Assembly (NCBI GenBank): GCA_963706445.1
Contig: OY970160.1
Span: forward strand, 1,568,001 to 1,632,000
Origin: an uncultured Nitrososphaerales archaeon
GTDB lineage: Archaea > Thermoproteota > Nitrososphaeria > Nitrososphaerales > Gagatemarchaeaceae
Direction: 5' to 3'
Length of the DNA stretch: 64,000 nt
The notes beneath the pieces were generated by a model. That model was not told where the DNA came from. It ran no database searches and worked only from the letters and a program-made list of their open reading frames with translations. Of the stretch, positions 48,381 through 63,457 are shown one piece after another (within the stretch, counting starts at the first letter, position 1; every line of letters begins with the position of its first letter). The translations under genes were made by a program, and so were the position numbers.

Positions 48381-48845
48381 ATGCCCGACGTTGGAGAGGT
48401 TGCGCCCGAATTCATCCTGTACGATTACGACAAGAAGCTGCGAAAGCTGTCGGAGTTCCTGGTCAAAGGGAAGAAGACAATTTTGGCGTTCTTTCCCGGA
48501 GCGTTCACGGGGACCTGCACCAAGGAGATGTGCGCCTTCAGGGACATGTACGGGGAGCTCGAGCACCTGAACGGCCAGGTCGTTGGGGTCTCCGTCGATG
48601 CTCCTTTCGCCCAGAAGGCCTTCGCCGAGAAGTACAGCCTGACGTTCCCCCTGCTGTGCGACTTCAAGCGGGAGGTGGTGAACAGGTACGGAGTCTTGTG
48701 GAAGAATTTGAGCGGAGTAGAAGGTTACGACGCAGCGAACAGGGCGATATTCTTGCTCGACGACACTGGCAAAATTCACTTCAAATGGGTGGCGAACGAG
48801 CCCGGGCAGCTGCCCGACTTCGAGGCCATCAAGAAGGCCCTCTAG
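48381..48845 (+). CDS. Peroxiredoxin (AhpC/TSA family)
   Basis: FFPGAFTGTCTKEMC, GVSVD, NRAIF. Confidence 0.93.
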   Translation: MPDVGEVAPEFILYDYDKKLRKLSEFLVKGKKTILAFFPGAFTGTCTKEMCAFRDMYGELEHLNGQVVGVSVDAPFAQKAFAEKYSLTFPLLCDFKREVVNRYGVLWKNLSGVEGYDAANRAIFLLDDTGKIHFKWVANEPGQLPDFEAIKKAL

Positions 48846-48860
48846 CAGGGAACAGATGGG

Positions 48861-49391
48861 ATGACGAGGGTCGTCGCCTTCCTGAGGGCGATCAACGTCG
48901 GAGGCCACGTTGTGAAGAAGGAGCAGTTGCTGCAGGTGTTCGAGTCGCTTGGGTTCAAGGGCGCTGTGGCCTACAAGCAGGCGGGGAATGTGATTTTCGA
49001 AGCTGATGTAAAAGACCTTGAGAGGGCCAGGCTCGGCATAGAAAAGAAGCTGCGCAGTGCCCTCGGCTACGAAGTGGAGGTGTTCATTCGGGGAGTCCTA
49101 GACCTCCAGGGGCTGGTTGAGAAAGAGCCGCGTGCGCAGAAGGCAGATGTGATGAGTTGCTTGGTCACGTTTCTGCCCGACTCCATTCCCAATCGGCTCC
49201 CCCGGCTCCCATTGGTCATTCCCAAGTCGACGGTGGAGGTCGTTTCGTCGACGGGCAAGGAGGTAATCAGTCTGACACATGTCATGGGGGAGGGGGTTCT
49301 TCCCAACCAGTTCCTGGAGTCGGAGTTGAAGGCGAAGACTACCACCCGCAACATCAACGTGATACGAGAAATTGTGGAGAAGTTCGGCTAG
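48861..49391 (+). CDS. DUF1697 family protein
   Basis: VAFLRAINVGG..QAGNVIF..TTRNIN. Confidence 0.9.
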   Translation: MTRVVAFLRAINVGGHVVKKEQLLQVFESLGFKGAVAYKQAGNVIFEADVKDLERARLGIEKKLRSALGYEVEVFIRGVLDLQGLVEKEPRAQKADVMSCLVTFLPDSIPNRLPRLPLVIPKSTVEVVSSTGKEVISLTHVMGEGVLPNQFLESELKAKTTTRNINVIREIVEKFG

Positions 49392-49455
49392 TGCTCGGAC
49401 TCATCAGAGAGCGCCCTAAGACATAAAGACGGTCGAGCAAACTGCCGCAATTTGT

Positions 49456-49522
49456 GGCCCTGGTTGTGTAGCTTGGTAAGCATAGGAGGCTGTGGACCTC
49501 CTGACGTGGGTTCAAATCCCAC
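49456..49522 (+). pseudogene. tRNA-His(GTG), truncated: 3' strand of the acceptor stem missing
   Basis: G-1, GCCCTGG, D arm GTGT/GCAT, anticodon arm GGAGG-CTGTGGA-CCTCC, T arm GTGGG-TTCAAAT-CCCAC, then TTATTTA instead of the expected CCAGGGC. Confidence 0.88.
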
Positions 49523-49619
49523 TTATTTACTACCTAGGTAGGCTCAAACAAAGCGTTTAAGAGACGATGGGCTCTAGAAAGTGTCGAGGACCCCAATGCT
49601 CGAGACCGTAATGATAAGA

Positions 49620-49716
49620 GGCCGCGGGAGGGATTTGAACCCTCGACCCCGAGGTAGCTACGCTGAGTCTACAGCTCCACAGCCTCGTATGCTAACCAAG
49701 CTGCACCACCGCGGCC
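49620..49716 (-). tRNA. tRNA-His(GTG) with 21-nt intron at 37/38 (49656-49676)
   Basis: Acceptor GCCGCGG/CCGCGGC, encoded G-1:C73, anticodon stem CGAGG/CCTCG, T arm GAGGG-TTCAAAT-CCCTC; the intron forms a BHB motif (CUGU/GUAG central helix, 3-nt bulges, GCUG/CAGC stem). Confidence 0.95.
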
Positions 49717-49771
49717 AAGCGGATCAAAGGTCTCCGGGGGTTCCTGATTTAAGGAGAAGGGGAACCAATCC

Positions 49772-51040
49772 ATGATATCCCCTGAGCCGAAGCAGGCGTC
49801 GGTGGAGCGACTGATGGCAGTGGCCAAGCTCGCGGAATCGACGAAGAAGAACTACCTGATGAGGGTTAACCAGTATGTCAAGGAGGTGAAGATGGGTCCT
49901 GATGAATTCGTCAGGTCGGTGAAGGCCAGGCCCAAGAAGTTCGAAGAGTCGTTCATCGAGTTCCTCCAGGCGACGGCAAAACGCTCAAGCCCGTCGACGA
50001 CCATGGCTTACAGGGACTCCCTGAAAAGGTTCCTGGAGATCAACAGGGTAAGGGGAATCGACTGGGACTATGTGGGCGATTTCGTGCCCAGCGCCAAGAA
50101 AGCTGGCCAGGACAGGGCGCCGACCCTGGAGGAGATCCAGAGGATCGTCGACGTCTCAGATCTTAGGATGCGGTGTCTCGTGCTGTTCCTTTGCTCGACT
50201 GGGGCGAGGATAGGTTCGATTCCATATCTGAAATGGAGTGACGTCGAGGGGGTGGAGGTCGAAGAAAAGAAGTTCGCCAAGGTGACCATTTACAGGAACG
50301 AGCCGGAGGCGTATATCACATTCATGACGCCGGAGTCCTACGGATTGCTATTGGAGTACAGGAAGTTGAGAGAGGGCATAGGCGAGCATGTCACGGCGGC
50401 CTCTCATGTCTTCGTGACCCAGGGCAACGCCAGGGATTTCGACCCCGCCGGGGTAAGGCAGGTATCTATCAATACGCTGAAGAATCAACTGGGGAAGTTG
50501 CTCGAAAACCTCGGGATGAGAACGGCGATAAGCCAGCGAGGACGATACAAGACCTACGAATTCAAGCAGGCACATGGTTTCAGGAAGTTCTTCAAAACGA
50601 GGATGGAGGTCGCTGGGGTCAAGCCGCTAGCCGTAGAAACCATGATGGGGCACAACACCGGGCTCGCGAGAAGCTACTACAAGCCGACGGCGGGGGAGCT
50701 AGCGAACGAATACTCGAAGGCCATTGATGAGCTGACAATAGTCAGGCCCCAGCAATCGGTGGCTAAGGACGCGATACTCGCTACAATAAGAAAGGAAATG
50801 CTGATCGGGAGGTACAGTGAAGTGGAGATTGGGAAGATTGGGGACCTGTCAAAGCTCACCAACGAGCAGATGGTTGAGCTACTGAATAGGAGGGCTCAGC
50901 CGGCAGCCCCTAAGGTTGCGGGGACCGGAAGTCAGAGGGTGGTCCCAGCCAGCGATGTCAAGGGAATGATCGAACAGGGGTGGGAGTATCTGACGAAGCT
51001 CCCCGATGGGTATGTTGTCATGAAGCTGCCGAAGCCCTAG
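49772..51040 (+). CDS. Tyrosine recombinase/integrase
   Basis: STGARIG (R), HGFRKFF (HxxR), MMGH, RSYY (Y); SAM-like N-terminal domain. Confidence 0.95.
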   Translation: MISPEPKQASVERLMAVAKLAESTKKNYLMRVNQYVKEVKMGPDEFVRSVKARPKKFEESFIEFLQATAKRSSPSTTMAYRDSLKRFLEINRVRGIDWDYVGDFVPSAKKAGQDRAPTLEEIQRIVDVSDLRMRCLVLFLCSTGARIGSIPYLKWSDVEGVEVEEKKFAKVTIYRNEPEAYITFMTPESYGLLLEYRKLREGIGEHVTAASHVFVTQGNARDFDPAGVRQVSINTLKNQLGKLLENLGMRTAISQRGRYKTYEFKQAHGFRKFFKTRMEVAGVKPLAVETMMGHNTGLARSYYKPTAGELANEYSKAIDELTIVRPQQSVAKDAILATIRKEMLIGRYSEVEIGKIGDLSKLTNEQMVELLNRRAQPAAPKVAGTGSQRVVPASDVKGMIEQGWEYLTKLPDGYVVMKLPKP

Positions 51041-51092
51041 AACCGAAGCATAGAATAGGGCAAATCCGCCCCATCGCATTTCTTGAAGTGGG

Positions 51093-51248
51093 TTATTCCT
51101 CTCCGCGCTCTTTCTTGTGTCGTCTTAGGTGCTCTCTGACCATCGAGTCAAGTTGCTTCTGGTAGAGCGAGACGAATGACTTGCCACACTCGGGACACGA
51201 GGCGGTCAGGACTCGGGGCATCTCGGGTTGCTTTACAAGCATATCCAT
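51093..51248 (-). CDS. C2H2 zinc-finger microprotein (51 aa)
   Basis: MDMLVKQ..SCPECGKSF..VREHLRRH. Confidence 0.75.
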   Translation of the reverse strand: MDMLVKQPEMPRVLTASCPECGKSFVSLYQKQLDSMVREHLRRHKKERGEE

Positions 51249-51324
51249 ACCCCTACCGGTATGGATATATAGAACTTGCGCCGAAAACCTCAGATGCTTA
51301 TATAGCCCACTGGTATGGGTATGG
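51241..51324. promoter_or_regulatory. Divergent promoter region with operator-like repeats
   Basis: Perfect 11-6-11 inverted repeat ATATCCATACC/GGTATGGATAT (51241-51268); GGTATGG twice more at 51312-51324; TTATATA near 51298. Confidence 0.65.
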
Positions 51325-51398
51325 GTACCCCTTACGACGGTGGACCGGGTCTTCACCCATCCATAAGTGACGGCGATCACGCCGGTGAGATTTCACTG

Positions 51399-51554
51399 GT
51401 GGGATTGAAGGAGAAAGCTCGCCGCATCCTTCCTCCCAATAGCCCGGCGAGGAACTTGATTCTGGCTGAGAAGGACACCCTCCCGGTAGGGGAAGCGCTA
51501 GCGAAGTTCGAAGTCTTCGACAGGCTCCTCATGAACGAGCTGAAGGTGGCATGA
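51399..51554 (+). CDS. Small helical hypothetical protein (51 aa)
   Basis: MGLKEKARRILPPNSPARNLILAEKDTL..; GGTGA Shine-Dalgarno upstream of GTG. Confidence 0.65.
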   Translation: MGLKEKARRILPPNSPARNLILAEKDTLPVGEALAKFEVFDRLLMNELKVA

Positions 51555-51555
51555 A

Positions 51556-52194
51556 GTGTACTTTGTCTATAGATGCCGAAGCTGCGGCGCCGAGCTCCTG
51601 GACGGGTCGAGGGACAATCTGAGGCAGAGGGTCCGGGAACACCCCTGCCCTAGGAGCGGCCAGGTGGTCATCTGGGAGGCGATAGGCCGCCCGGCGGTTC
51701 ACGAAAGGACCAAGCAAGATCGCAACAGGAGATTACGAGAACAGAAGCTTCGGGCACTGGAACTCGTATGCGGGAAGGTGGAACCGCTTGGGAGAGGTGC
51801 GTCAATGGTGAACTCGCAAGTTGTGGTCAAGTGTGCCCATCCGGGGTGCGAAGTCCAGGACCCTAGTAAGCTCGAGTTGTACCTGAAGGATGGGAGCAAG
51901 AGGCCGCTGACTAAGTCGGGAGGGAAGAAGTGGGGGACGAACCTGTACCCGGGAATTGTGGCGGGTCATATCGATCCGGATCCTTTCATTGTCGTGTGCA
52001 AGATGCATAGGACGATGTACACTTCAAGCAGGAGATGGCAACCAGTCGCCCCAAAGCTTGGACACTCGACTGGAAGGCCGGAAGAGGAGGCACGGACGGT
52101 CACGGTTGGGGAGCTATTGAGGACGCTATTAGCAAAACGGAGGAAGTCTGGAGAATCGGAAGAGGCGGGAGTGGAGTGGAGCCAGAGGACATGA
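51556..52194 (+). CDS. Zinc-binding protein with degenerate HNH-like domain
   Basis: CRSCG..HPC N-terminus; RALELVCG..KCAHPGC..LELYLKDG..GTNLY..FIVVCKMH. Confidence 0.55.
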   Translation: MYFVYRCRSCGAELLDGSRDNLRQRVREHPCPRSGQVVIWEAIGRPAVHERTKQDRNRRLREQKLRALELVCGKVEPLGRGASMVNSQVVVKCAHPGCEVQDPSKLELYLKDGSKRPLTKSGGKKWGTNLYPGIVAGHIDPDPFIVVCKMHRTMYTSSRRWQPVAPKLGHSTGRPEEEARTVTVGELLRTLLAKRRKSGESEEAGVEWSQRT

Positions 52195-52283
52195 GCGGAT
52201 GCACTTGCATGTGGGTTAGGGCTGGATTGGGTTCTGGGTGGCCAGGCGGCGATAAGAAATCAACGAATTTCCAAGGAAAACCC

Positions 52284-52568
52284 GACATTGGTCAAGGTGG
52301 CGGACATTTAGAGGGGCTCTCCTACTACCTCTAGTACCCAAGACATTGGTCAGGAGGGTTGCTGTCTAGGGGTTCGAGGAATGTCCGAATATGGACCGTG
52401 TGGAAACCTAACGTTAAGGCGCTACTTTGAGACAGAACAGGGCTTGGTTTGGTGACTGGTGCCTGCCTAGAGGGCTCCCCTCCCACTTGGGCCCACCTCA
52501 TGGGAGTCTAGGAGCCGAGCGACAAGCGATAACTTAACGCCTGACCATAACAAATATTCGATTGGTCA
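52284..52568. repeat. Cluster of short repeats (GACATTGGTCA and variants)
   Basis: GACATTGGTCA at 52284 and 52342, ATTGGTCA at 52561, CGGACATT at 52301 with its inverse AATGTCCG at 52380. Confidence 0.6.
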
Positions 52569-52604
52569 CTGTAGGTTTCCGAATGGGGAGATGGAGTGTT
52601 GGGG

Positions 52605-52739
52605 TCAGGGTGTACTCCTGAATCGAGCTTTGAAGTGCTGGCACTCTTCATGCTTGACCATCACATCGTACCACTCTCCGCATTGTTCACAGTAGTACCA
52701 GCGGTTGAGACTGAAATCCCATGGAGGCCTCCGTGGCAT
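52605..52739 (-). CDS. Zinc-finger microprotein (44 aa)
   Basis: MPRRPPWDFSLNRWYYCEQCGEWYDVMVKHEECQHF..; CTTAAG box about 27 nt upstream. Confidence 0.55.
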   Translation of the reverse strand: MPRRPPWDFSLNRWYYCEQCGEWYDVMVKHEECQHFKARFRSTP

Positions 52740-52844
52740 AGCCAAAACAAGGAACGCGGGGCCCTTAAGCCTTGACTCTCCAAAGAAAGGGGGCGGTGGC
52801 GAATCGAATCGCCCAAGTGGGAGAATCTGGAGCGCCTGAGCTCC

Positions 52845-53217
52845 AAGGATAAGAACCACTTCCTGACCCGACAACTATGAGGCCATGCTCTCGATGAAGA
52901 CCATCGACCTGCTCTTCCAGAACTTCAAGTCCGACCTGAAGCTGGAGGAGATCATCCTGAACTCGCGGAGGCTCGCCAGCTTCCTTCTGGGCAGGAGCCA
53001 GAGCCTGGAGTTCGTCCTGAGGCCGGTCGTAGTCAAAGAGGCGTTCGTGAAGGACGCCGTGAAAGAGATGATCCTGACGAAATCGCATCGGGAACTGGGG
53101 ATGAACAAGAGCACGCTTTGGTATCAGAGGAAACACATGAGAGAGACCGGGTCGGTAAGGCTTTACAACAAGACGAAGCAGTATTTCGTCTCTAACCCGA
53201 GTTGCAAGAATTTTTAG
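52845..53217 (+). pseudogene. cas1: C-terminal remnant of a Cas1-solo/casposase-like protein with HTH extension
   Basis: (HFLT/DNYEAML)..IILNSRRLASFLLGRSQSLEF..KEMILTKSHRELGMNKSTLWYQRKHMRETGSVRLYNKTK resembles the archaeal Cas1+HTH tail (recalled); frameshift near 52869; catalytic core absent. Confidence 0.7.
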
Positions 53218-53247
53218 GATAACGGGATTCGGCAGTGCCCCGCGGAA

Positions 53248-54153
53248 TTGGTTGCCGACCCTCAAGCCACCTTACTGAGCTATTTGACGCAAGAAGTTTC
53301 GGCTCATGGGACGATACTCGTTGGCTTGATTGCGGCCATGTTCGCTTACTTCACTCTCAAGGGACACGAGTCGTTCTCGAAGACAGTTCTTGGAACCCCG
53401 AAAAGAGGGTGGAATGAAGTACTTTCAGCATCGGCATTGCTGCTACTTGTGGCGGGAGTCGTCTTCGTCATCGGAAGGATGATGAGCTATGGTCAGTTAA
53501 CCTACTTCACGATTTACAATAATCCAATTGCGAATCAAAGTCTGGGGACATACTACACAGCAGTTCATAATGCATCGATCTCGTTCGGTGCTCCACGGAT
53601 AGTCTTAGAATACTTTCCTAGCGACTTCTGGGCAGGAGGGCTATTCTCGATATGGGTAGGCGGCTTCTTGACATTGATGCTCTGGAGACCACGAAGAATA
53701 TCCAGGTGGCGCCTCATTTTCTCTGGAGTAATGTTAGTCTTCGCTCTGTTTTCGTCGGTACTAGTTAGCCATATTTTAGCGAACGGGGCAGACAGGGATT
53801 ACGTGTTCATTTTACTTTACGTTGCATACTTTCTAGCCTCAGTAGGAAATTGGCCGATTCCATGGCGTGACCTGTTCAAGGGAATCCCCGTGGGCAAGAT
53901 GGCCATCATTTACCTTGACAATGACCAAACAATCGGAGGCAAAGTCACACAGAGAAGCGGAGGGGAGATGACAATCGAAGACGCTTCTATGATTGCGGTT
54001 CACCATGTCCTAGGCGGTGCAGAGCCTTCCTTTGAGCCCACAAGCGGAATGGGGGATGTCAACATCCCTGTCTCATCCATCCTCAGGTGGAGCCCGTTTC
54101 CCACCAGTCTTGCCGAAAAATGGAAAAACCTCCCTAAGAACCAATCAAAGTAG
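53248..54153 (+). CDS. Multi-pass membrane protein with C-terminal Sm/LSm-like domain
   Basis: About five TM helices, then GKMAIIYLDNDQTIGGKV..MTIEDA..VNIPVSSILRW; AT-rich relative to the host genes. Confidence 0.65.
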   Translation: MVADPQATLLSYLTQEVSAHGTILVGLIAAMFAYFTLKGHESFSKTVLGTPKRGWNEVLSASALLLLVAGVVFVIGRMMSYGQLTYFTIYNNPIANQSLGTYYTAVHNASISFGAPRIVLEYFPSDFWAGGLFSIWVGGFLTLMLWRPRRISRWRLIFSGVMLVFALFSSVLVSHILANGADRDYVFILLYVAYFLASVGNWPIPWRDLFKGIPVGKMAIIYLDNDQTIGGKVTQRSGGEMTIEDASMIAVHHVLGGAEPSFEPTSGMGDVNIPVSSILRWSPFPTSLAEKWKNLPKNQSK

Positions 54154-54442
54154 CTCTGCTTACGCATCGAAGCCAAGTCCTGCTTCTCTCCATTCACGCA
54201 GGCGCGTTACGGCGACACTGACGTCTACATTTCTCAGTCACTCGAAGCATCTGAAGTGCCTTAATCTATGCCGTGAAGTGCTGAGTATAGTGACTTAACA
54301 AACCCTTCCAAGGACTCGATTGGCTGGGGATCATACATTCGACCCCAACAGGACGAGGTATTCCCGGCGGGGGTGCGCCATTGCTAAGACTTTTCATATT
54401 GGGCAGGGCCCGAACTGGAGAAGAATTGCCGCCCTAGTGTAA

Positions 54443-54901
54443 TCAGGCCGACGTGACTTTGAGCAGACCGCTCTGCATGGCCCAGTGTATCGAACAGAAG
54501 ATGCTACAATAGATTCGGAAATCCCCGCTCTTATCAGCGACGAAGGACACGTGCAGAACCTGGCCTGGCACAATTGTGATGATGTTGCTGTCGTAGTAGT
54601 ACGTTACCTGGAATCCATGCGCTTGGAAGTCGGTGTTGCAGACTGTGATGTTCACAGTCTGGTTTTGCTGGACGGTCATCACCGGCCACGAATTTGTAGG
54701 CACACCATGGGAGATGCTGTCGTTGTAACCGTCACTGCTCGCAACTATAAGGAACCCGTCGGCGGGCTTCACGCACTCCAATGGAAGAGAGGTGGAGGTA
54801 GTGGTCCTGCCCCGGCTTGCTAGGTAGAACGCGGTGGTAAGGATGGCGCCGACAAGGACTACAACCAAGACGACAAGGATAATCAGCTGGTTTGGCTTCA
54901 A
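54443..54901 (-). CDS. Membrane-anchored cupredoxin with CuA-like motif
   Basis: AHGF..GDFRIYCSIFCSIHWAM. Confidence 0.85.
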   Translation of the reverse strand: MKPNQLIILVVLVVVLVGAILTTAFYLASRGRTTTSTSLPLECVKPADGFLIVASSDGYNDSISHGVPTNSWPVMTVQQNQTVNITVCNTDFQAHGFQVTYYYDSNIITIVPGQVLHVSFVADKSGDFRIYCSIFCSIHWAMQSGLLKVTSA

Positions 54902-54918
54902 CCACTGTCAGAGCCAGT

Positions 54919-55809
54919 TTACGAATGGAGGAGAGCCGCCAGATAAAGGCAAGTGAATCCCAGAATCATCATCAAAGCGATCTTTGTTGATTCCAATTTT
55001 GAACCTGCGCCCTGGAAGAGCGGTCGAGCAAGCCTCAAGGCGGCGTAGGTCGAGGTCCCAAGGCCAAAAGCGAACACATAGGTAAAGTCGATATTGGGAA
55101 ACGCCTGAATCAGATAGTACGAGCTCGCTCCCCCGATTATCCCCGGCAAAGTGAAGGCCAGGGTCAGGACGACGAGGTCCTTCAGACGGCCACCCATGTC
55201 CTTCGTGTGGGCCTTTGCGTAAATCCAATATGCTGCGCCAACCATCATGGGCTCCAGTCCCTTATGCAGCACGAAAGCTGTCCCCGCTGATAGGCCGCCG
55301 AATGCGTCTATCAGGTTTGTACTCGAAGATGTTGCTGCAGTAGCGCCAACCGCGGCTCCCTCGCCGAAGCCATGGATTCCTACCGCAACGGCTACGAGCA
55401 GTGGTATCGCAAAGCCGAAGCTGACCCCAACGGACCCCTCGGCGAACATCTTGGTGTCAAGGGAGAATAGGAGAACCACGCCGATCGCGAAGACCACCCA
55501 CAGGGCGATATGCCAGCCGCCCCCAGTGAATCCCTCACTGACCCCGAGCAGCGAAGCATCCCCGATGGTGTCCGAGAAGAACCAAAGGTATAGACCGATG
55601 GCGAATGCCGCGAGGTACTTCCCACTGAGGTATCTTGCCGCTGCAGAGATTATTAAAAGCCCAATGAAGGTCGGAATCAGAAAGGTTGCGAGAACAGCGC
55701 CGAAGGTTTCAGCGAAACCTATCAAATTGCCGAACTCCCAACCCTTACCGGAAGAGTATGAACCGCAACCGAGGAGGGCTTCCCCTTCGCTGGGAACGGC
55801 ACCTCTCAC
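54919..55809 (-). CDS. ZIP-family-like metal transporter (true start probably downstream of 55809)
   Basis: AVGIHGFGEGAAVG and FVLHKGLEP metal-site helices; about eight TM. Confidence 0.75.
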   Translation of the reverse strand: MRGAVPSEGEALLGCGSYSSGKGWEFGNLIGFAETFGAVLATFLIPTFIGLLIISAAARYLSGKYLAAFAIGLYLWFFSDTIGDASLLGVSEGFTGGGWHIALWVVFAIGVVLLFSLDTKMFAEGSVGVSFGFAIPLLVAVAVGIHGFGEGAAVGATAATSSSTNLIDAFGGLSAGTAFVLHKGLEPMMVGAAYWIYAKAHTKDMGGRLKDLVVLTLAFTLPGIIGGASSYYLIQAFPNIDFTYVFAFGLGTSTYAALRLARPLFQGAGSKLESTKIALMMILGFTCLYLAALLHS

Positions 55810-55897
55810 GAGTAGGGATGTTTAGTTATTCAGCATTGTGGCTCAAACGGCGAAACCTAAGAAACCTTAAGTCGATTCGTAGGGTGAAATAATCGCC

Positions 55898-56236
55898 TTG
55901 TCATTACCAACCCTAATTACTTCAAACCAGGACGACATCATGCATTTTGTCCTGCTCGTGCTTTCCGTCGTCCTTATGGCCGTATCCGCAAACGGGTTTA
56001 GGAGGAGACCAAACAGCCGGTACTTTTTCCTCATGCTGGCCTTCATTTTCTTCTGTCTGGATCAAGCAATCACGTTCTATCAAGAAATCTATCTGAACGG
56101 CCTGCTGATTTCAATTCCAATTCTCAGCTTGCATCTCGTCCACCTCCTAGAACTATTGATGAGCGTCAGCTTCCTGACAGCTCTGCTCAGGCCTTTCTCC
56201 CTTGGTCGGAGGGACGTGCAAGAAAGTGGATTCTGA
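55898..56236 (+). CDS. Small three-TM membrane protein
   Basis: Three hydrophobic helices; overlaps the downstream HTH gene. Confidence 0.7.
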   Translation: MSLPTLITSNQDDIMHFVLLVLSVVLMAVSANGFRRRPNSRYFFLMLAFIFFCLDQAITFYQEIYLNGLLISIPILSLHLVHLLELLMSVSFLTALLRPFSLGRRDVQESGF

Positions 56237-56759
56237 CAACATCAACCGTCAGCAAACCAAGCGACTGATATCGTTGTTCCCTGGCGTCCACCTCCGAATG
56301 CTTTCGAGATACCTTGGAGTATCTCTGAGCACGGCCCGATATCATCTGGCAGGCCTCCAGAGAGACGGCGAGGTCTACTGCAGGAAGGAAGGGGGGCATC
56401 TCAGAGCCTATCCCCTCTGGGCAACCGACGAACGTAGCAGAATGATATATGCCGTTCTCCAGCAAAAGGCGGTAAGGAGGATTCTTCGCATAATGCTCAG
56501 AGGAGAGCATGGGGAAGAACCAATGAAGACAAACAGTTGGATTTCGGGTGAGGCCCGCCTTTCCCAATCGACAGTGAGCGAGTATCTAGGCGCGCTCCAG
56601 GATCTACAGGTGGTCAGAAGGATGACCAACAAGGAAGGTCGCGCAGCATTTGAAATCGCAGATGAAGACAAGAGCCTCCTATCGACCGTTCTAGCGTCTT
56701 ATGAGGGTAACTTCGCTTCTAGGGCCACAGACAATTACGTTGACCTCTGGGAGTTCTAG
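56226..56759 (+). CDS. Tandem winged-HTH transcriptional regulator
   Basis: PGVHLRMLSRYLGVSLSTARYHLAGL and LSQSTVSEYLGAL. Confidence 0.85.
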   Translation: MDSDNINRQQTKRLISLFPGVHLRMLSRYLGVSLSTARYHLAGLQRDGEVYCRKEGGHLRAYPLWATDERSRMIYAVLQQKAVRRILRIMLRGEHGEEPMKTNSWISGEARLSQSTVSEYLGALQDLQVVRRMTNKEGRAAFEIADEDKSLLSTVLASYEGNFASRATDNYVDLWEF

Positions 56760-56782
56760 GTCGGGCCGGCCTGCCTTGCTCT

Positions 56783-56825
56783 GTTAACTGCTGTAATTTT
56801 TCTGAAAATTTTTGCAGCAGTTAAC
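56783..56825. terminator. AT-rich hairpin between convergent genes
   Basis: Perfect 11-bp arms GTTAACTGCTG/CAGCAGTTAAC enclosing T/A tracts. Confidence 0.55.
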
Positions 56826-56856
56826 CTGCCTACTCCTGGAGAGAGAGGGCCTAATG

Positions 56857-56882
56857 TGCGGTCGCCGGGATCTGAACCCCGG
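56857..56882 (-). other. tRNA-Gly-like 3' fragment (att-site relic)
   Basis: Reverse complement CCGGGGTTCAGATCCCGGCGACCGCA: T arm plus acceptor strand CGACCGC-A; no anticodon or D arm. Confidence 0.65.
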
Positions 56883-57104
56883 TTCCCTATGCGAATTATT
56901 GGTGACTGCGCGTTGATTTCGATATATCTTGCGGCGAGTGCCAGGCGGAACCACTTCCGTGGCACTTATAGCCGACCCGCGGCACCAAGCCGACTCCGAA
57001 GATCCAAACTAACTGTCAAATCCACCCGCTTTTCAGACCAACACATCTATTCTTTTGTGAAATAAGTGGGCTTTATTACCGCCTTACATGAAGTTGCAAC
57101 GACC

Positions 57105-57755
57105 CTACCTCCGCCTCTCTGTCACTTCTTCATGCTCTATGACAACAACCGAGCCGAGCACGAACCTGTGGTCGATCGGACCAAGTATCGAAATGTTGAA
57201 GGAATCTCTGACCGAGACCCACTTCTTGTGGACCTGGGCCACATCAACGCCGTTGGCCTGAAACCTGTAGTCATGCTCGACGAAATTGCCATAGATTCTG
57301 ACGAACTGGTTCCCGTTCAGCTCGAGCCAGTACTCGCTTCCTATCAGCCTCGCGATCTTCTTCTTTATCGCCGCCAGCATGTTCCCTCCAGAATCATAGA
57401 TGTCGAACTCCCTTCGCAGCGAGACCAGCTTACCGTTTACGCTCAAGATCTGAGCCCCAGTGGAGTCCAGAACAGCGAACTTCGCGGGGAGCTGGAAGAA
57501 GTTACCATCGGCCTGACCCAAGGGCGTGCCAGAAGCGTCCTGGATGTCGTAGTGCTCTCGCACTGAGACGATCTTTTTGTTGAGAGTCAGCTCGTTCGCG
57601 GTAAGCAGGAGCGTCTGTCCGACGGTGGAGGGTGTGGGCGAAGACTGCGCCGGGGAAGCATCTGCGTCAGAGGTCGGTGATACGGGCTTGCCACAGGACG
57701 AGCAGAAACTGGCGTCAGCCAGCAGCGAGGCTCCGCAATAGCGACAGAACACCAT
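57105..57755 (-). CDS. Zinc-ribbon plus LURP-one/scramblase (Tubby-C-like) protein
   Basis: FCRYCG..FCSSCG; YDIQDASG, IYGNFVEHDY, VAQVHKKWVSVRDSFNI. Confidence 0.85.
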   Translation of the reverse strand: MVFCRYCGASLLADASFCSSCGKPVSPTSDADASPAQSSPTPSTVGQTLLLTANELTLNKKIVSVREHYDIQDASGTPLGQADGNFFQLPAKFAVLDSTGAQILSVNGKLVSLRREFDIYDSGGNMLAAIKKKIARLIGSEYWLELNGNQFVRIYGNFVEHDYRFQANGVDVAQVHKKWVSVRDSFNISILGPIDHRFVLGSVVVIEHEEVTERRR

Positions 57756-57931
57756 CTTCGATTGCTAGTCGGAGGCGGCTCGATATAAGCGTCGGATCCG
57801 GGCAACCCCAGATCCAGCATCGGCATTATTGATTTGCGTCTTCGACCCGTTTCAGAACCACTCCCGTGGTCTTCTTATCCGACTCGAGACATACTTAGCG
57901 TGTTACCTCATAGCAAGATGACTCTTCGGGA

Positions 57932-58390
57932 CTACACTCCGATATCTTCGTTCCAAAGGGTGGGCCTGTCCTCGACAAACTTCTTCATCATGTCGACACA
58001 GTTGGGATCACTCAAGTTGATGAGTTTCACACCTCTCTTCAATAGATAATCTTCATGGCCTTTGAAATTCACGTTTTCTCCTATCACCACCAAAGGAATC
58101 TTGTACAGAAGTACTGCACCACTACACATATCGCAGGGCGAGAGTGTTGAGTACAAAGTGCACTCGGAGTACGTGTCCGCCTTCAATCTTCCCGCGTTCT
58201 CCAGGCAATCCATTTCCGCATGCAAAACCACACTTCCCTTCTGAACTCTCCTGTTGTGTCCTCTCCCGATCACTTTCCCTTTGAAAACTAGTACGGAACC
58301 TATTGGTAACCCACCCTCCTTCAAACCCTGCTGAGCCTCTTTCCAAGCTTCGGTCATGAATTTCTGGTAGTCACCTGAATCTTTTGACAC
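57932..58390 (-). CDS. Cytosine/nucleoside deaminase (fungal Fcy1-like)
   Basis: GGLPIGSVL, GRGHNRRVQ, HAEMDCLENAGR, LSPCDMC, WNEDIG. Confidence 0.92.
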   Translation of the reverse strand: MSKDSGDYQKFMTEAWKEAQQGLKEGGLPIGSVLVFKGKVIGRGHNRRVQKGSVVLHAEMDCLENAGRLKADTYSECTLYSTLSPCDMCSGAVLLYKIPLVVIGENVNFKGHEDYLLKRGVKLINLSDPNCVDMMKKFVEDRPTLWNEDIGV

Positions 58391-58544
58391 TGGGTTTGGA
58401 CCAATGACTTGCTCGCAAGGAGTAGTTGAATCTTGTCAAATTCTGCCAGCCGACTGCGCCTTTTCTTCTCTAGCCGACCTTACCGTTGCTTAAGACATCT
58501 TGTTTCAACTCATGTCCCACCCAAAGCCGTTCTCTTTCACGAGT

Positions 58545-58570
58545 TCATCCAAGAAAGGAAACTTGGATGA
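58545..58570. promoter_or_regulatory. Operator-like inverted repeat between the deaminase and the Dpp operon
   Basis: TCATCCAAG-N8-CTTGGATGA, about 50 nt upstream of a TTTATG box. Confidence 0.55.
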
Positions 58571-58636
58571 TCTTCTGCGCTCTCGCATGATTCAGGCGTT
58601 CACGGATGCTTTGCAGAACATTTATGCAAGTCTGAA

Positions 58637-59689
58637 GTGAAGAGACGCTCTCAAGTGAACCTACTAAGGTACATCCTCCAAAGGATTGTCTTCGCCATAG
58701 TGGTCTTAGTCAGTGTAGTGACGATTACTTTCATCATAGCACATAGCCTGGGGTCCAACCCGATAGTGGCCTGGCTGGGACGGGACGCCGCGTCCCACCC
58801 CCAATTGGCCCAGCTTTTCGCGCAGCAATACCACCTGAACGACCCGATATGGGTCCAGTACTACTACTACATTGGAGGTCTCCTGGAAGGCAACCTAGGG
58901 TATTCCCCTTCGAGGGGCTTCGCACCAGTCCTGACGGTTTTGAGCCAGACCCTCCCATACACTTTGCAGCTGGTGTTCTTTGCTTTTCTCATAACCATAG
59001 GGCTCGGAATCTTGTTCGGAGTGCTCGCTGCGAAGTACGCCCACACTCCAGTCGACTGGGGAATCCGGACCCTCTACCTCGCAGGCTCGGCCTCCTCCCC
59101 CTTCTTCGTCGCTCTGGTGCTCCTTGTCGTCTTTAGCTATCTATTGAGGCTCCTCCCTAGTGGCGGCGCCTTCGATCTAAGCTTGACGACGGCTACTCCC
59201 ATCACGGGGTTTCCGCTGATAGACAGCCTCATCGAGGGAAACTGGGCTTTCTTCGCAAGTAGCCTGGAGCATCTGATCCTTCCAAGCTTCGCTTTGGCCC
59301 TCGTCACCTTTGGCGTCGTGACGAGGGTGCTGAGGAGCTCCCTGCTCGATGTTATGCGAATGAACTACGTCAGAACCGCAAGGGCGAAGGGACTTTCGGA
59401 GAACAAGGTCTTCTTCAAGCACGCGGTTAGGAACGCACTGATTCCAGTGGTCACGCTCTCATCTGTAGTCCTCACGTGGCTGATAACCGGCACGATTTTC
59501 GTCGAGAATGTCTTCGGCTATCCAGGGATGGGCCAGTACTTGGTTTCTGCCCTCGAGTACCAGGACTATCCCGGCATACTCGCCGTCGCGATAGTCTTTG
59601 CCATATTCATCGTCGTGGGAAACCTTGTCGCAGACCTTCTGTACGTATACATCGACCCGCAAATCCGGCTTGGAGGTAGAGTTGAGTAG
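58637..59689 (+). CDS. dppB: Dipeptide/oligopeptide ABC permease (DppB-like)
   Basis: YILQRI, GNLGYS, YVRTARAKGL, KHAVRNAL, DPQIR. Confidence 0.93.
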   Translation: MKRRSQVNLLRYILQRIVFAIVVLVSVVTITFIIAHSLGSNPIVAWLGRDAASHPQLAQLFAQQYHLNDPIWVQYYYYIGGLLEGNLGYSPSRGFAPVLTVLSQTLPYTLQLVFFAFLITIGLGILFGVLAAKYAHTPVDWGIRTLYLAGSASSPFFVALVLLVVFSYLLRLLPSGGAFDLSLTTATPITGFPLIDSLIEGNWAFFASSLEHLILPSFALALVTFGVVTRVLRSSLLDVMRMNYVRTARAKGLSENKVFFKHAVRNALIPVVTLSSVVLTWLITGTIFVENVFGYPGMGQYLVSALEYQDYPGILAVAIVFAIFIVVGNLVADLLYVYIDPQIRLGGRVE

Positions 59690-60548
59690 CCATCTTACCT
59701 CGCGCCTAAAGACCTTCCTCTTGCTCATCAGGAAGAGCAGGGAGGCTATGGCTGGAGCCGTCATCATCGGTGGATTCTTCCTGCTCGCTATCCTCGTAGA
59801 AGTCTCGGAGGTTCTAGGTGTCCGAATCACCCCCTACGGCCCTCTTCAGCAGAACACCGGACCTGTGCTGGCGCCTCCGTCGCTGGCCCATCTTTTCGGC
59901 ACCGACCCGCTGGGCCGGGACGTGTTCAGCAGGATGGTGGTTTCGACACCTAACGATGTGGCAGTCGGCCTTGCCGTCGTAGGAGTAGGCCTCTTGGTCG
60001 GTCTCATGATAGGCTCGGTCGCCGCCCTCAGAGGTGGGCTCCTCGATGAGTTCCTGATGCGCGTAACGGACGTCTTCTTCGCCCTCCCCGCGCTTGTCAT
60101 CGCGATGGTGGTAGCCGTCGCGCTTGGGCCGGGGATCACGAACATGATGATTGCACTCGTGATCATTTGGTGGCCTCCCTATGCGAGGCTCGCCAGAGGG
60201 GAAGCACTGAGGGTTGTCAACCAGAACTACATCGAGGCATCCCGTACCTCGGGTTATGGGACTGGGAGGATAATCACGAGGCACATCATTCCCAACATAT
60301 TCACGACCATGCTGGTCTACGCGACGCTTGACATTGGGACGGTCATCCTTGTTTACGCAGGTTTGAGCTACCTTGGCCTGTCGGTCAAACCCCCGACCCC
60401 CGACTGGGGGGAGATGGTAAGTTCCTACCAAGACTATCTCATATCGGCGCCCTGGCTCCCCATCTTTCCTGGGCTAGTGATTGCTATTGGGGTCGCAGGT
60501 TTCAGCTTGCTCGGCGACGGGCTCAGGGACGCCCTCGAGGCCAGGTAA
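59682..60548 (+). CDS. dppC: Dipeptide/oligopeptide ABC permease (DppC-like)
   Basis: HLFGTDPLGRDVFSR, RHIIPN, PDWGEM, GDGLRDAL. Confidence 0.93.
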   Translation: MSSHLTSRLKTFLLLIRKSREAMAGAVIIGGFFLLAILVEVSEVLGVRITPYGPLQQNTGPVLAPPSLAHLFGTDPLGRDVFSRMVVSTPNDVAVGLAVVGVGLLVGLMIGSVAALRGGLLDEFLMRVTDVFFALPALVIAMVVAVALGPGITNMMIALVIIWWPPYARLARGEALRVVNQNYIEASRTSGYGTGRIITRHIIPNIFTTMLVYATLDIGTVILVYAGLSYLGLSVKPPTPDWGEMVSSYQDYLISAPWLPIFPGLVIAIGVAGFSLLGDGLRDALEAR

Positions 60549-60549
60549 G

Positions 60550-61620
60550 ATGCCGACCCTGCTCGACATAAGCGACTTGACTCTACGATACATGGTTGGC
60601 AACCAACAATTCACCGCATTGGACTCGGTCAACCTCACCATGGCGGAGAATGAGTTCCTCGCGGTCGTCGGAGAGTCAGGGTGCGGCAAGAGCTCCTTGG
60701 GGCTCTCTATCATCGGCTTGACGCCTAAGAAATCGAGCCGAATCGTGAAAGGTTCCATCAGATACAAGGACGAAGATCTGGCAAGGCTACATCAGGATGA
60801 GTTGAGAGAATACAGAGGCACCGAGATAGCCATGATCTTCCAGGAGCCACTCACCAGCTTGAATCCTGTATACAAGATAGGTGACCAGATGGCGGAGGCA
60901 ATCGAAGTGAGAACAAAGCGGAAATCTGGAGTAAGGGCGAACAACGAGCTCGCGCAAAAAGTGTACGACGCCGCCTCAGGAGATCAGGGGAGCCTTTCGC
61001 GCGCATTGCTGATTCGCAGAGGCACTCGTCCCGAGGTGAAGAAGGAAATGGTGGATTGGCTCGACCTCGTGAGGATCGGCGACCCTGAACATGTTTTGGA
61101 GCTTTTCCCGTTCGAGCTCTCCGGTGGCATGAGGCAGCGGGTGATGATCGCCATGGCCCTTTCCCAGAAGCCTGCCCTGCTCATCGCAGATGAACCGACC
61201 ACGGCCCTAGATGTTACCACCCAAGCCCAAGTCCTCAAGCTAATGCGCGACCTGATGCACGAGGTCAATACGAGCATACTTCTGATCACGCACGACCTCG
61301 CCGTCGCTAGCCAAGTTGCCGACCGTGTAGTGGTCATGTACGCAGGTGAGATTGCCGAAGATGCGGAGGTCAACGCGTTGTTCAAGAAGCCTTTGCACCC
61401 ATATACACAGGGGCTTCTAAACTGCATACCGGCCGGGACGAAAGACAACTCCTTCTTGGCCCCCATCCCAGGCTCCGTCCCCGATTCCAATAACACCCTC
61501 CAAGGATGCAAATTCGCCCCGAGATGCCAATTCGCCTTCGACAGATGCCAATCAAACAGACCGAAGCTCATCAATCAGGGGGACGGCCATCAAGTCTCGT
61601 GCTTCCTCCATGACAAGTGA
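60550..61620 (+). CDS. dppD: Peptide ABC ATPase (DppD-like)
   Basis: GESGCGKS, LSGGMRQR, HPYT, C-terminal Cys motif. Confidence 0.94.
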   Translation: MPTLLDISDLTLRYMVGNQQFTALDSVNLTMAENEFLAVVGESGCGKSSLGLSIIGLTPKKSSRIVKGSIRYKDEDLARLHQDELREYRGTEIAMIFQEPLTSLNPVYKIGDQMAEAIEVRTKRKSGVRANNELAQKVYDAASGDQGSLSRALLIRRGTRPEVKKEMVDWLDLVRIGDPEHVLELFPFELSGGMRQRVMIAMALSQKPALLIADEPTTALDVTTQAQVLKLMRDLMHEVNTSILLITHDLAVASQVADRVVVMYAGEIAEDAEVNALFKKPLHPYTQGLLNCIPAGTKDNSFLAPIPGSVPDSNNTLQGCKFAPRCQFAFDRCQSNRPKLINQGDGHQVSCFLHDK

Positions 61621-62617
61621 AGAACCGCTCCTAAGGGTCGTCAATCTGAAGAAGTATTTCCCGGTCAGATCGGGTGCGTTACTAAGGGGGGAACGCCGAT
61701 TTGTCAAGGCCGTCGACGGCGTCTCGCTTGAGCTGGGAACAGGAAAGACATTGGGCGTGGTGGGCGAATCGGGCTGTGGAAAGACCACCCTTGCCAGGGT
61801 GGTGTCCTTGCTCACCCCCGTGACCAGCGGCGAGATATATTTCGAGAGCAAAAGAATGGACAGAGGCCGGATGAACCCGAAGGAAGTCTATCGCAATATG
61901 CAAATTGTCTTTCAGGATCCTGATTCGAGTCTCGATCCACAGATGAGAGTGGCCGATTCGGTCGCCGAACCGATCCGAGGCCTCCTCAAAGGCCCTGAAA
62001 ACATGGTGGAGAAAGCGGTCAAAGATAACCTCGCTGCAGTTGGTCTATCCCACGAGCTGGGAAGTAGGCTCCCACGTCAGCTGAGCGGCGGCCAGAAACA
62101 AAGGGTAGCGATCGCCAGGGCGATATCTGTCCGGCCTAAGCTCGTGATCTTAGACGAACCGACCAGCGCCCTGGATGCCTCTATCCAGGCCCAACTCCTC
62201 AGGCTCCTCGTAGAACTTCAGAAGGAATTCAACCTTTCCTATCTGATCATAACTCACAATATCGCGGTGGCGAAGTATCTTTCAGACGCCGTCGCGGTAA
62301 TGTATGCGGGGAGGGTCGTCGAATATGGCCCCACATTAGGAGTCTTGGAGAACCCGAGGCACCCGTACACCGACCTGCTGATCAAGTCTGCCCCATTTCC
62401 TGACCCATCGCAAAGGAACCTCTTGCAAGCGGAAGTCAAGGGCGAGGTCCCAAGCTTGATTCATCCTCCGCCAGGTTGCCGATTCAACCCGAGATGCCCC
62501 CTCGTGGGGCCAATTTGCTTGACGGAGAACCCTCCTCTAAGAGAGATAGCCAGGTCCCAGTGGGTGGCGTGCCACTTCGCTGAAAAGACGGGACAAAAAG
62601 GGGTGCCTCCGGCCTGA
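61610..62617 (+). CDS. dppF: Peptide ABC ATPase (DppF-like)
   Basis: GESGCGKT, LSGGQKQR, HPYT, PPPGCRFNPRC, VACH. Confidence 0.94.
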   Translation: MTSEEPLLRVVNLKKYFPVRSGALLRGERRFVKAVDGVSLELGTGKTLGVVGESGCGKTTLARVVSLLTPVTSGEIYFESKRMDRGRMNPKEVYRNMQIVFQDPDSSLDPQMRVADSVAEPIRGLLKGPENMVEKAVKDNLAAVGLSHELGSRLPRQLSGGQKQRVAIARAISVRPKLVILDEPTSALDASIQAQLLRLLVELQKEFNLSYLIITHNIAVAKYLSDAVAVMYAGRVVEYGPTLGVLENPRHPYTDLLIKSAPFPDPSQRNLLQAEVKGEVPSLIHPPPGCRFNPRCPLVGPICLTENPPLREIARSQWVACHFAEKTGQKGVPPA

Positions 62618-62630
62618 CCGGGCAGGCCGC

Positions 62631-63404: not shown

Positions 63405-63457
63405 ATCGTCACTGGGTTCACGAGTTATGATAATTTAATGTTCGTTCGCTTGCTGGA

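Follow-up and report, generated by a model that had tools for sequence, protein, structure and literature searches.

Prophages that practise "active lysogeny", such as the comK prophage of Listeria, interrupt a host gene that is restored by their precise excision, and the genes they target are dispensable and regulated. Split, trans-spliced tRNA genes exist in Nanoarchaeum and Caldivirga. A review of the tyrosine recombinases of archaea maintains that a tRNA gene is always rebuilt when an element integrates into it site-specifically (PMC8371274), and att sites of 8-17 bp were found to be typical of the phylum in a survey of Thaumarchaeota (PMC6563490). A tRNA-Thr fragment was described together with a recombinase element in Caldiarchaeum subterraneum, and the authors proposed that mobile elements are the driving force by which introns are gained and tRNAs fragmented (Sugahara et al. 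2012, PMC3293823).

Our analysis of one window (the whole 64,000-nucleotide stretch of DNA under study) and of the genome around it indicated that a 74-kb island with one integrase is likely to have entered the T loop/T stem of the native single-copy tRNA-His gene, leaving its target unrebuilt and carrying a complete tRNA-His of a different type. Like the elements of active lysogeny, the island interrupts its target rather than rebuilding it and would restore it by precise excision; unlike theirs, its target is an essential, single-copy tRNA gene, so that the element has to bring a substitute. Our locus shares with the split tRNA genes of Nanoarchaeum and Caldivirga a wide chromosomal separation between the two pieces of a single tRNA gene, but it has no complementary leader and trailer, is broken at 65/66 next to an attachment-site repeat, and possesses a whole replacement gene. 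The 3'-side target, short att site, and unsplit integrase all fit the general rule for tRNA-targeting integrases (PMC8371274, PMC6563490), to which the locus is nevertheless an exception in that the tRNA is not rebuilt. The C. subterraneum locus comes from a related archaeal lineage and likewise combines a 5' tRNA fragment, a complete tRNA of different form (extra intron), and integrase-bearing DNA between them; its fragment, however, is an ordinary direct-repeat leftover and its working gene a rebuilt hybrid on the same strand (PMC3293823), whereas our target gene is genuinely disrupted and the working copy is a separate whole gene inside the island, in the opposite orientation. A literature search, which was not exhaustive and hence is not proof of absence, found no precedent for an element that both breaks and complements a tRNA gene.

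The native tRNA-His gene and its displaced 3' end

The features on the host side of the junction, and the junction itself, are as follows (window coordinates).

48381..48845, plus strand: peroxiredoxin (AhpC-TSA) gene of the host flank, with homologues near tRNA-His in relatives of the genus
48861..49391, plus strand: DUF1697 gene of the host flank (Pfam PF08002, E 6.8e-25), directly upstream of the native tRNA-His
49417..49430, plus strand: native tRNA-His promoter box TAAGACATAAAGAC, conserved upstream of plus-oriented tRNA-His in six aligned relatives and in metagenome loci
49456..49522, plus strand: native tRNA-His(GTG), truncated, G-1 to nucleotide 65 (ARAGORN and partial Rfam match)
49513..49522, plus strand: left junction (attL) core CAAATCCCAC, comprising the T loop and the 3' strand of the T stem, with an identical 10-mer at genome 1691660-1691669
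49523..49530, plus strand: TTATTTAC, the 8-nt block where alignment with relatives leads one to expect the acceptor 3' strand and discriminator (CCAGGGCC)

The plus copy begins with G-1 at 49456 and the acceptor 5' strand GCCCTGG, and its D, anticodon (GTG), and T arms are intact to 49522; only positions 10-63 of the Rfam tRNA model were matched (36 bits). The acceptor 3' strand and the discriminator are absent, the break lying after the T stem at 65/66; the loss of the acceptor 3' strand after the T arm had been described in the initial annotation. In the alignment, TTATTTAC is equal in length to the corresponding 8 nt of relatives and differs from them at six bases, and the stretches on both sides are conserved. 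Since this block occupies the place of the acceptor 3' strand at the left junction, the plus tRNA-His is not rebuilt, and the locus lacks the target tRNA rebuilt beside the integrase that characterizes its class.

That the plus copy is the native gene follows from relatives in which the same AhpC-DUF1697 flank adjoins a complete, plus-oriented tRNA-His of the GCCCTGG type. The gene order from DUF1697 to tRNA-His is common to the relative G018 and the metagenome locus L083, the AhpC-TSA gene (annotated as PF00578 in L083) has a host-like GC3, and the promoter of the plus copy is genus-typical.

The stranded 3' end, CCAGGGCC behind the 10-bp repeat CAAATCCCAC, was found 74,147 bp downstream, beyond the window. 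This is a 20-nt exact match to the expected tRNA-His 3' end (genome 1691660-1691679, same strand), for which the chance expectation in the genome was estimated at ~3e-6. Rejoining 49456-49522 to genome 1691670-1691677 gave a perfect cloverleaf that was called as tRNA-His and is 92% identical to the type found in G005 and G018.

Boundaries and content of the island

Genome 1617523-1691669: island of 74,147 bp, defined by composition and repeats; its left 14.5 kb are window 49523..64000, and it runs past the window end
49531..49598, plus strand: integrase-proximal arm, homologous to relatives; contains the ancestral integrase promoter (GCGTTTAAGAG, 49553-49563) and, at 49596, an ATG

The 10-bp direct repeat CAAATCCCAC occurs at genome 1617513-22 and 1691660-69, its second copy being followed by CCAGGGCC. 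The initial annotation had placed the right end of a ~3-kb element at 52494, which proved to be the boundary of nothing; the true right junction is genome 1691660-1691677, equivalent to window position 123660-123677. A direct-repeat search within the window yielded nothing useful because this junction lies outside it. Two candidate right boundaries, TCCCAC at 52481-52494 and a site at 58515-58528, were rejected as weak look-alikes of the exact 20-nt 3' end at genome 1691660-1691679. At 10 bp the repeat is short, yet within the 8-17 bp reported as usual for att sites in the phylum (PMC6563490).

The composition of the island is foreign: its GC content is 54.8% against 58.2% in the rest of the genome, its GC3 is 0.66 against 0.74 in the flanks (p 2.7e-6), and both measures drop exactly at the two junctions. 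Island genes that were examined are metabolic or transport genes, and no virus or conjugation genes were found among ~40 island ORFs scanned with Pfam or PHROGs.

The integrase-proximal arm is homologous to the stretch that separates tRNA-His from the integrase ATG in relatives, and the ATG at 49596 lies 73 nt after the core by hand count, against 73-76 nt in relatives. The stretch TACCTAGGTAGGCTC was first suggested by its likeness to G018 to be native host flank; this was rejected, as the same type of stretch leads into integrase genes in G064, L079, and L083. The right-hand arm CCAAAGCCCCATTTCTGTTG also occurs at the right junction of an element remnant in G009, which is 2.1 kb long and without integrase, has a repeat of 20-22 nt, and has rebuilt its target, a CCCTC-type tRNA-His. 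The earlier proposal that the TCCCTC T arm of the replacement gene would lack the target core is weakened by this remnant, which has the same right-hand arm and sits in a tRNA-His of that very type. Decayed sites that resemble a tRNA-His 3' end are present within the island, the history of which may accordingly be composite. DNA downstream of tRNA-His is variable across the genus, and an empty site with the right flank of the island was not found in relatives.

The integrase and the island-borne tRNA-His

49617..49771, minus strand: 155-bp cassette of a 3-nt trailer, tRNA-His, and a 55-bp upstream region, absent from nine related integrase loci
49620..49716, minus strand: island-borne tRNA-His(GTG), complete (full-length Rfam match), with acceptor GCCGCGG, T stem GAGGG/CCCTC, and an intron at 49656-49676
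49748..49752, no strand assigned: TTTAA box between the divergent tRNA-His and integrase, read directly; candidate shared TATA element
49772..51040, plus strand: tyrosine integrase of 422 aa, unsplit by integration (Pfam Phage_integrase, PF00589; PHROG integrase)

The integrase is the sole tyrosine recombinase in the island, and its catalytic residues R146, H268, R271, H294, and Y302 are invariant among 13 homologues. With these residues, the repeats in tRNA sequence, and the foreign composition and cargo, the element is a tRNA-targeting tyrosine-integrase genomic island with an unsplit integrase in a pNOB8-like arrangement.

The two tRNA-His copies lie tail to tail, separated by the 97 bp of 49523-49619. 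The minus copy matched the full Rfam model (positions 1-71, 51.3 bits) and folds into a cloverleaf with an 8-bp acceptor; G-1:C73, which is part of this acceptor, and the GTG anticodon are the identity elements for His. Its 21-nt intron is situated at 37/38 in a canonical helix-bulge-helix-bulge-helix, comprising an outer helix CGAGG/CCUCG, a central 4-bp helix CUGU/GUAG with two G-U pairs, and an inner helix GCUG/CAGC; the bulges are GG|A and CU|A, with the splice sites two bases into each 3-nt bulge. This structure was worked out by hand, and the RNAfold minimum-energy structure differs in that region. A 55-bp gap (49717-49771) separates the minus tRNA from the integrase ATG at 49772. The geometry of the pair, the completeness and bulge-helix-bulge intron of the minus copy, the intact integrase, and the TTTAA box at 49748 all agree with what the initial annotation had read from the sequence. 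Read on the minus strand, TTAAAT stops 30 nt short of G-1; on the plus strand the box stands ~20 nt before the integrase ATG.

The cassette separates the old integrase promoter from the integrase ATG, has its tRNA pointing away from the integrase, and is flanked by ATGATA at 49611-49616 and 49772-49777, a motif found nowhere else in 49500-49800. The minus copy lies inside inserted DNA, because the displaced native 3' end is 74 kb away. Integration at the 5' side of the minus copy was considered and rejected, there being no 5' fragment of that copy elsewhere in the genome. In its mature form, the minus tRNA shares 92% identity with the GCCGCGG type of G017 and G006, and 82% with the rejoined native gene. 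Its best match among 401 genomes of the order reaches 81% and is confined to the tRNA, with no similarity continuing into the flanks; no donor emerged, the exact intron 24-mer occurring in neither the genome collection nor the metagenome collection.

A third tRNA-His gene was found nowhere in the 1.82-Mb genome by ARAGORN with introns, the Rfam tRNA model, a custom anticodon-arm/T-arm scan, or BLAST with the genes of relatives, although these scans would miss a tRNA-His whose anticodon loop or T loop is interrupted by introns. No complete tRNA-His other than the minus copy was thus found in the genome. The earlier proposal that the element complements its target without restoring it is supported: the native gene is broken, its 3' end is 74 kb away, and the sole complete copy is inside the island.

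Comparison with related islands

The islands in tRNA-His of Nitrososphaerota relatives (G005:C91, G044:C20, G064:C1, G061:C4, and the metagenome loci L078-L083) have the same integrase family and target gene as ours and often occupy the same AhpC-DUF1697 locus. They also resemble our island in having the integrase next to the left junction on the strand of the tRNA, and in a homologous arm and promoter between tRNA and integrase with 73-76 nt spacing. In contrast, their tRNA-His is rebuilt and they have no tRNA gene of their own, whereas ours has TTATTTAC and a reversed tRNA-His cassette before the integrase. The closest integrases are 56-65% identical, and at all nine loci checked a complete, rebuilt tRNA-His is followed by the integrase on the same strand. 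The expectation that homologues of the integrase would repeatedly be preceded by a divergent tRNA was therefore not borne out, all nine being classical. Every locus inspected in ~40 genomes of the genus, in which the acceptor types GCCCTGG and GCCGCGG coexist, has a complete tRNA-His. A broken tRNA-His with an island substitute is a one-off and not a habit of the integrase family.

Origin of the broken gene

In the mechanism that we propose, the integrase would have inserted the island at the T loop/T stem of the native tRNA-His, with the 10-bp direct repeat at its ends. The island-side arm, bearing TTATTTAC, would have left the native gene as a promoter-bearing 5' fragment (-1 to 65), and the intron-containing island tRNA-His would have taken over from it. 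All His codons would now be decoded by the island copy, on which the cell would rely; precise excision between the two cores would be expected to regenerate the native tRNA-His, and any other loss of the cassette would presumably be lethal. We moderately favour the view that the island already had its non-rebuilding arm at integration, because slow decay in place would not be expected to spare the 66-nt body of the tRNA, its stranded 3' end, and the stretches on either side of the 8-nt block, all of which are undamaged.

A different order of events, which we regard as rather unlikely but worth weighing, is that classical integration with a rebuilt tRNA-His came first and that a later local event swapped the 8-nt acceptor strand; it differs from the proposed explanation in timing alone. 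All nine related elements rebuild their tRNA, no other element with TTATTTAC was found in the metagenome 18-mer search, and the tRNA-His of the island would have made a rebuilt gene redundant, which would have allowed its loss. In that search, the junction 18-mer CAAATCCCACTTATTTAC had at least 120 metagenome matches, a pattern too short for that collection, and in the stretches that could be screened the similarity ended with the 18-mer. Against later damage, six of eight adjacent bases differ with no change of length, and no damage is seen in the 66-nt body, in the 19-nt arm adjoining the block, or in the stranded 3' end, although one templated patch event may have occurred. The composition of the island has not drifted towards that of the host, which suggests that little time has passed since integration.

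A false joining of two strains or replicons at tRNA-His seems highly improbable. The genome may be metagenome-derived (95% completeness, 3.5% contamination), and the assemblies of several relatives break at the tRNA-His locus; however, an artefact presupposes two errors whose joint outcome happened to be a 10-bp direct repeat and, 74 kb away on the same 1.82-Mb contig, a stranded 3' end of perfect complementarity, and 10 bases are presumably fewer than any usual assembly word length. That the minus copy is instead the native tRNA-His, with the plus copy as the leftover attachment-site fragment of an old element, is barely credible. Several members of the genus do have a tRNA-His with a GCCGCGG acceptor in minus orientation relative to AhpC, but the minus copy here lies within a repeat-bounded, compositionally foreign segment, none of the native tRNA-His promoters of 401 genomes in the order matches the region upstream of it, and the conserved native promoter and synteny belong to the plus copy. 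Moreover, if the plus copy were a leftover, it should repeat part of the working gene in direct orientation, whereas it is a 5' fragment of another sequence type that converges on that gene. Equally hard to credit is a working split tRNA, whose 5' and distant 3' fragments would arise as separate transcripts for the splicing endonuclease to join, as happens in Nanoarchaeum and Caldivirga: the 5' fragment retains its promoter and undamaged body, and the many tRNA introns of the organism imply that splicing machinery is present, but trailer and leader pair no better than shuffled sequences (178/300 reach the duplex energy), the 3' piece would contribute 8 nt only, and a complete tRNA-His gene exists.

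Returning to insertion with a non-rebuilding arm, a broader reading, which we put forward tentatively, is that the island belongs to a lineage independent of target sequence, whose portable promoter and tRNA-His cassette could insert destructively into any tRNA-His T loop, replace an essential gene, and create addiction-like dependence. Once the cassette had been gained before the integrase gene, an arm matching the host acceptor stem would no longer be needed; a mismatched rebuilt hybrid between the GCCCTGG and GCCGCGG acceptor types might itself be nonfunctional. Such a long-lived lineage bringing its own tRNA is undocumented, because a second member was not found and the closest integrase is only 65% identical. 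Through it, if it existed, archaeal tRNA genes could be replaced, gain introns, and be scattered as fragments by a direct route.

The locus is a clean natural exception to the always-rebuilt rule in a complete genome, with an essential tRNA left broken and an intron-containing element gene as its apparent substitute. It allows three ideas of long standing to be tested on a real case: that mobile elements drive tRNA fragmentation, intron gain, and gene replacement in archaea; that an island can impose host dependence by capturing an essential gene; and that a whole tRNA gene of its own frees an element from the acceptor-stem match, which would widen its host range. Annotation pipelines would list two tRNA-His genes here, of which one alone is complete.

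Small ORFs after the integrase

51093-51380, minus strand: small ORF after the integrase, with a weak zinc-finger match
51315-51554, plus strand: small ORF overlapping the preceding one, with a homologue adjoining the G005:C91 integrase

At a guess, these two ORFs might serve recombination directionality or regulation. In L078-L082, the integrase is followed by a convergent ORF of 71 aa.

The tRNA-His gene broken by the island and its complete replacement

Our analysis identified a 74,147-bp integrase island that targets a tRNA gene, the native tRNA-His(GTG), and replaces it instead of rebuilding it. The window (positions 1568001-1632000) lies on a single contig of 1,817,757 bp (58% GC); coordinates refer to the window unless marked as genome. 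The features at the left end are as follows.

49456-49522, + strand: native tRNA-His (plus copy), from G-1 through the final T-stem base, by direct reading
49523-49530: TTATTTAC, the block directly after the core (the 10-bp repeat at both island junctions)
49553-49563: TATA-like GCGTTTAAGAG, within the arm (island sequence adjoining the core) homologous to what lies between tRNA and integrase in relatives
49596: ATG, 73 nt past the core, the integrase start-codon spacing of relatives
49611-49616 and 49772-49777: ATGATA hexamers flanking the cassette, the second being the integrase start
49617-49771: 155-bp cassette absent from relatives, comprising a 3-nt trailer, the reversed tRNA-His and a 55-bp upstream region with a TTTAA box
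49620-49716, - strand: tRNA-His (minus copy), matching the entire Rfam tRNA model (51.3 bits)

After its T stem, the plus copy continues with TTATTTAC in the position expected for CCAGGGCC, which would pair with the acceptor 5' strand GCCCTGG and add the discriminator; ARAGORN called it as a short tRNA-His, and Rfam covered only model positions 10-63 (36 bits). The minus copy, 97 bp away, folded into a cloverleaf with a G-1:C73 pair and carries a 21-nt intron at position 37/38 (49656-49676), the motif of which was canonical when assigned by hand, with an outer helix CGAGG/CCUCG, a 4-bp central helix, an inner helix GCUG/CAGC and two 3-nt bulges cleaved past the second base. It lies 55 bp from the integrase ATG (49772), with TTTAA at 49748 in between. 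The whole arrangement described in the initial annotation was borne out, from the truncated plus copy to the minus copy with its bulge-helix-bulge intron and the intact integrase. Its proposal that the target is complemented rather than restored is also supported, with TTATTTAC replacing CCAGGGCC and the minus copy being the only complete tRNA-His found.

No third tRNA-His was found genome-wide by ARAGORN with intron search, the Rfam tRNA model, BLAST with tRNA-His genes of the genus, or a custom scan that looked for a T arm behind a GTG anticodon arm, allowing a canonical intron in the latter. These scans are blind to introns within the anticodon loop or T loop, and the absence is strong but not absolute because unusual tRNA introns are many in this genome. 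Many of its tRNA genes must have non-canonical or multiple introns, as exemplified by tRNA-Phe and by fragment-like matches at 1498731 and 1281762. ARAGORN and Rfam each called only 35-39 tRNA genes, leaving several amino acids without a called gene. The tRNA-Phe(GAA) gene (genome 1522330-1522437), overlooked by ARAGORN, has a D-loop intron and appears complete; another tyrosine integrase follows it in the classical arrangement (genome 1522842-1523327).

Boundaries of the island

A BLAST search with the full tRNA-His of a relative recovered CAAATCCCAC-CCAGGGCC-CC as a 20-nt exact match in the orientation of the plus copy (genome 1691660-1691679), against a chance expectation that we estimate at ~3e-6 given the genome size. 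Because of this match, CAAATCCCAC is read as a 10-bp direct repeat (genome 1617513-22 and 1691660-69) bounding 74,147 bp, far larger than the element at 49456-52494 initially delimited. The sequence made by joining 1617522 to 1691670 was called tRNA-His by ARAGORN and folded into a perfect cloverleaf, its 8-bp acceptor taking in G-1:C73. Base composition is in line with the boundaries: GC is 54.8% in the island versus 58.2% in the remaining genome, GC at third codon positions is 0.66 (62 island ORFs) versus 0.74 (24 flanking ORFs; p 2.7e-6), and each shifts at both junctions.

The integrase family and the timing of the break

The genome has only three tyrosine recombinases. The one in the island, the integrase, retains R146, H268, R271, H294 and Y302, which are invariant in 13 homologues. 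Homologues are many, the closest sharing 62-65% identity, and their source labels are Nitrososphaerales or Nitrososphaerota. We inspected nine related loci, from genus genomes (contigs G005:C91, G044:C20, G064:C1 and G061:C4) and metagenome contigs (L078; L079-L082, four contigs of one element; L083; L084). The initial annotation had proposed checking whether homologues are repeatedly preceded by a divergent tRNA matching a broken neighbor; instead, the integrase gene was preceded, on its own strand, by a complete tRNA-His in 9/9, usually 73-76 nt from the ATG, with a homologous intervening arm (e.g., CTATATCTGGGCTCAAATC...GCGTTAAAT). Relative G009 has an element remnant of 2.1 kb that lacks an integrase; its right-hand arm CCAAAGCCCCATTTCTGTTG is identical to that of the island, its 20-22-nt repeat spans the entire tRNA 3' end, and the tRNA is rebuilt. 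The initial annotation had suggested that the T arm of the minus copy would lack the target core. Since the rebuilt tRNA-His of G009 has the T stem CCCTC, the differing T-stem base of the minus copy is not obviously protective against this element family. All tRNA-His loci inspected, in the ~40 genus genomes yielding a match, were complete; the break is one event in the present genome and not a family habit.

The core extends over the T loop and T stem 3' strand, one of the sublocations at which tRNA-targeting integrases are known to act (Williams 2002, as cited in PMC6563490 and PMC8371274). With strand exchange within the core, all sequence right of it at the left junction would be island-derived, which would make TTATTTAC the island's own arm. 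The island arm may already have been without the tRNA end before integrating, a loss that the island could afford because it carried a whole tRNA-His. In length, the TTATTTAC block matches the acceptor strand and discriminator exactly, and 6/8 bases differ; the core and the arm on either side of it are conserved, and the tRNA body (66 nt) and the stranded 3' end show no damage. Slow decay after integration fits this pattern less well than loss before it. Classical integration followed by one patch-like event is possible, and we consider pre-existing loss the likelier of the two. Under either timing, the native gene is broken and the island gene is the only complete tRNA-His; recombination between the two cores would exactly restore the native gene.

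A trans-spliced split tRNA is not supported, its trailer-leader pairing being equaled by 178/300 shuffles. Misassembly is highly improbable, as it would require two coordinated errors that happened to leave a 10-bp repeat as well as a 3' end with a perfect match.

The native copy and the tRNA-His locus in the genus

The reading of the minus copy as the native gene is contradicted by its position within a foreign segment and its unfamiliar promoter. The box TAAGACATAAAGAC (49417-49430) and the surrounding sequence upstream of the plus copy are kept 5' of tRNA-His in six aligned relatives and in metagenome loci, and the order peroxiredoxin, DUF1697, tRNA-His(+) recurs in relative G018 and metagenome locus L083, which identifies the plus copy as native at the DUF1697-tRNA-His locus singled out by the initial annotation. 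The plus copy has the acceptor type GCCCTGG, as in these relatives, and the minus copy GCCGCGG; the mature copies share 82% identity, versus 92% for either with its own acceptor type.

Both acceptor types occur in the genus, GCCCTGG versus GCCGCGG or GCCGCGA (L012, L013, L014, L028, L050 and L227, from relatives G016, G006, G003, G014, G064 and G045). Across the genus, tRNA-His may point either way with respect to the peroxiredoxin gene, and it has between zero and two introns (D loop and 37/38). Rearrangement and intron turnover clearly have a hot spot at this locus.

The tRNA cassette and known elements

Deleting 155 bp and one ATGATA brings the integrase into the reading frame of the ATG at 49596, and because the frame is restored, the minus copy looks like a small promoter and tRNA cassette inserted at the extreme 5' end of the integrase gene. 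ATGATA has no further occurrence in 49500-49800, and the pair is possibly a 6-bp target-site duplication, for which a 6-mer is only suggestive; if so, a bare promoter and tRNA unit would be insertable as a cassette. No terminal inverted repeats were found around the cassette, and no match elsewhere to either its intron or its flanks.

A review of archaeal tyrosine recombinases gives it as a rule that site-specific integration at a tRNA gene restores that gene (PMC8371274). A survey of Thaumarchaeota elements described att sites down to 8 bp, 3'-side targets and intron-containing targets, and did not report destructive insertion (PMC6563490). The closest known case is the tRNA-Thr locus of Caldiarchaeum, where a recombinase is flanked by a 5' fragment and a two-intron gene; that fragment, however, is an ordinary repeat and that gene a rebuilt hybrid (PMC3293823). 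In the literature searched, of which coverage was incomplete, we found no report of an element breaking an essential tRNA gene while supplying a whole replacement. As a single instance read from sequence, the island breaks the stated rule for tRNA-targeting integrases and bears on archaeal tRNA gene fragmentation and replacement.

Cargo and internal motifs of the island

The island genes examined were metabolic, transport and regulatory (peptide ABC transporter parts, two aldehyde dehydrogenases, a molybdopterin oxidoreductase, adenine deaminase, peptidases, permeases and a deaminase), with no viral or conjugation genes seen among them. Four ORFs scanned across 52605-53265 had no Pfam match at E up to 0.01, which gives no support to a Cas1/casposase-like remnant at 52765-53265. 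A 1.27-kb stretch (54453-55726), spanning ORF 54919-55809 (- strand, without a Pfam match), has a second copy at genome 450964-452239 (80% identity) and occurs in G009 at 75%; a repeated gene, or a mobile one, is a possible reading.

The conserved motif GATTTGAACCCAC-ATAT-GTGGACTCACATCCCAC, with a decayed tail resembling CCAGGGCC behind it, occurs twice within the island (genome 1654363-1654410 and 1691523-1691566; loci L032 and L034), with a weaker copy at 58509-58528. With its tail, it resembles a reversed half T arm fused to a tRNA-His 3' end that has degenerated. A second element family may use it as its attachment site, and the island may, from these internal motifs, be composite. The motif is present in other genus genomes at 86-95% identity and adjoins another integrase, with 34% identity to that of the island, in contigs G007:C10 and G039:C246.
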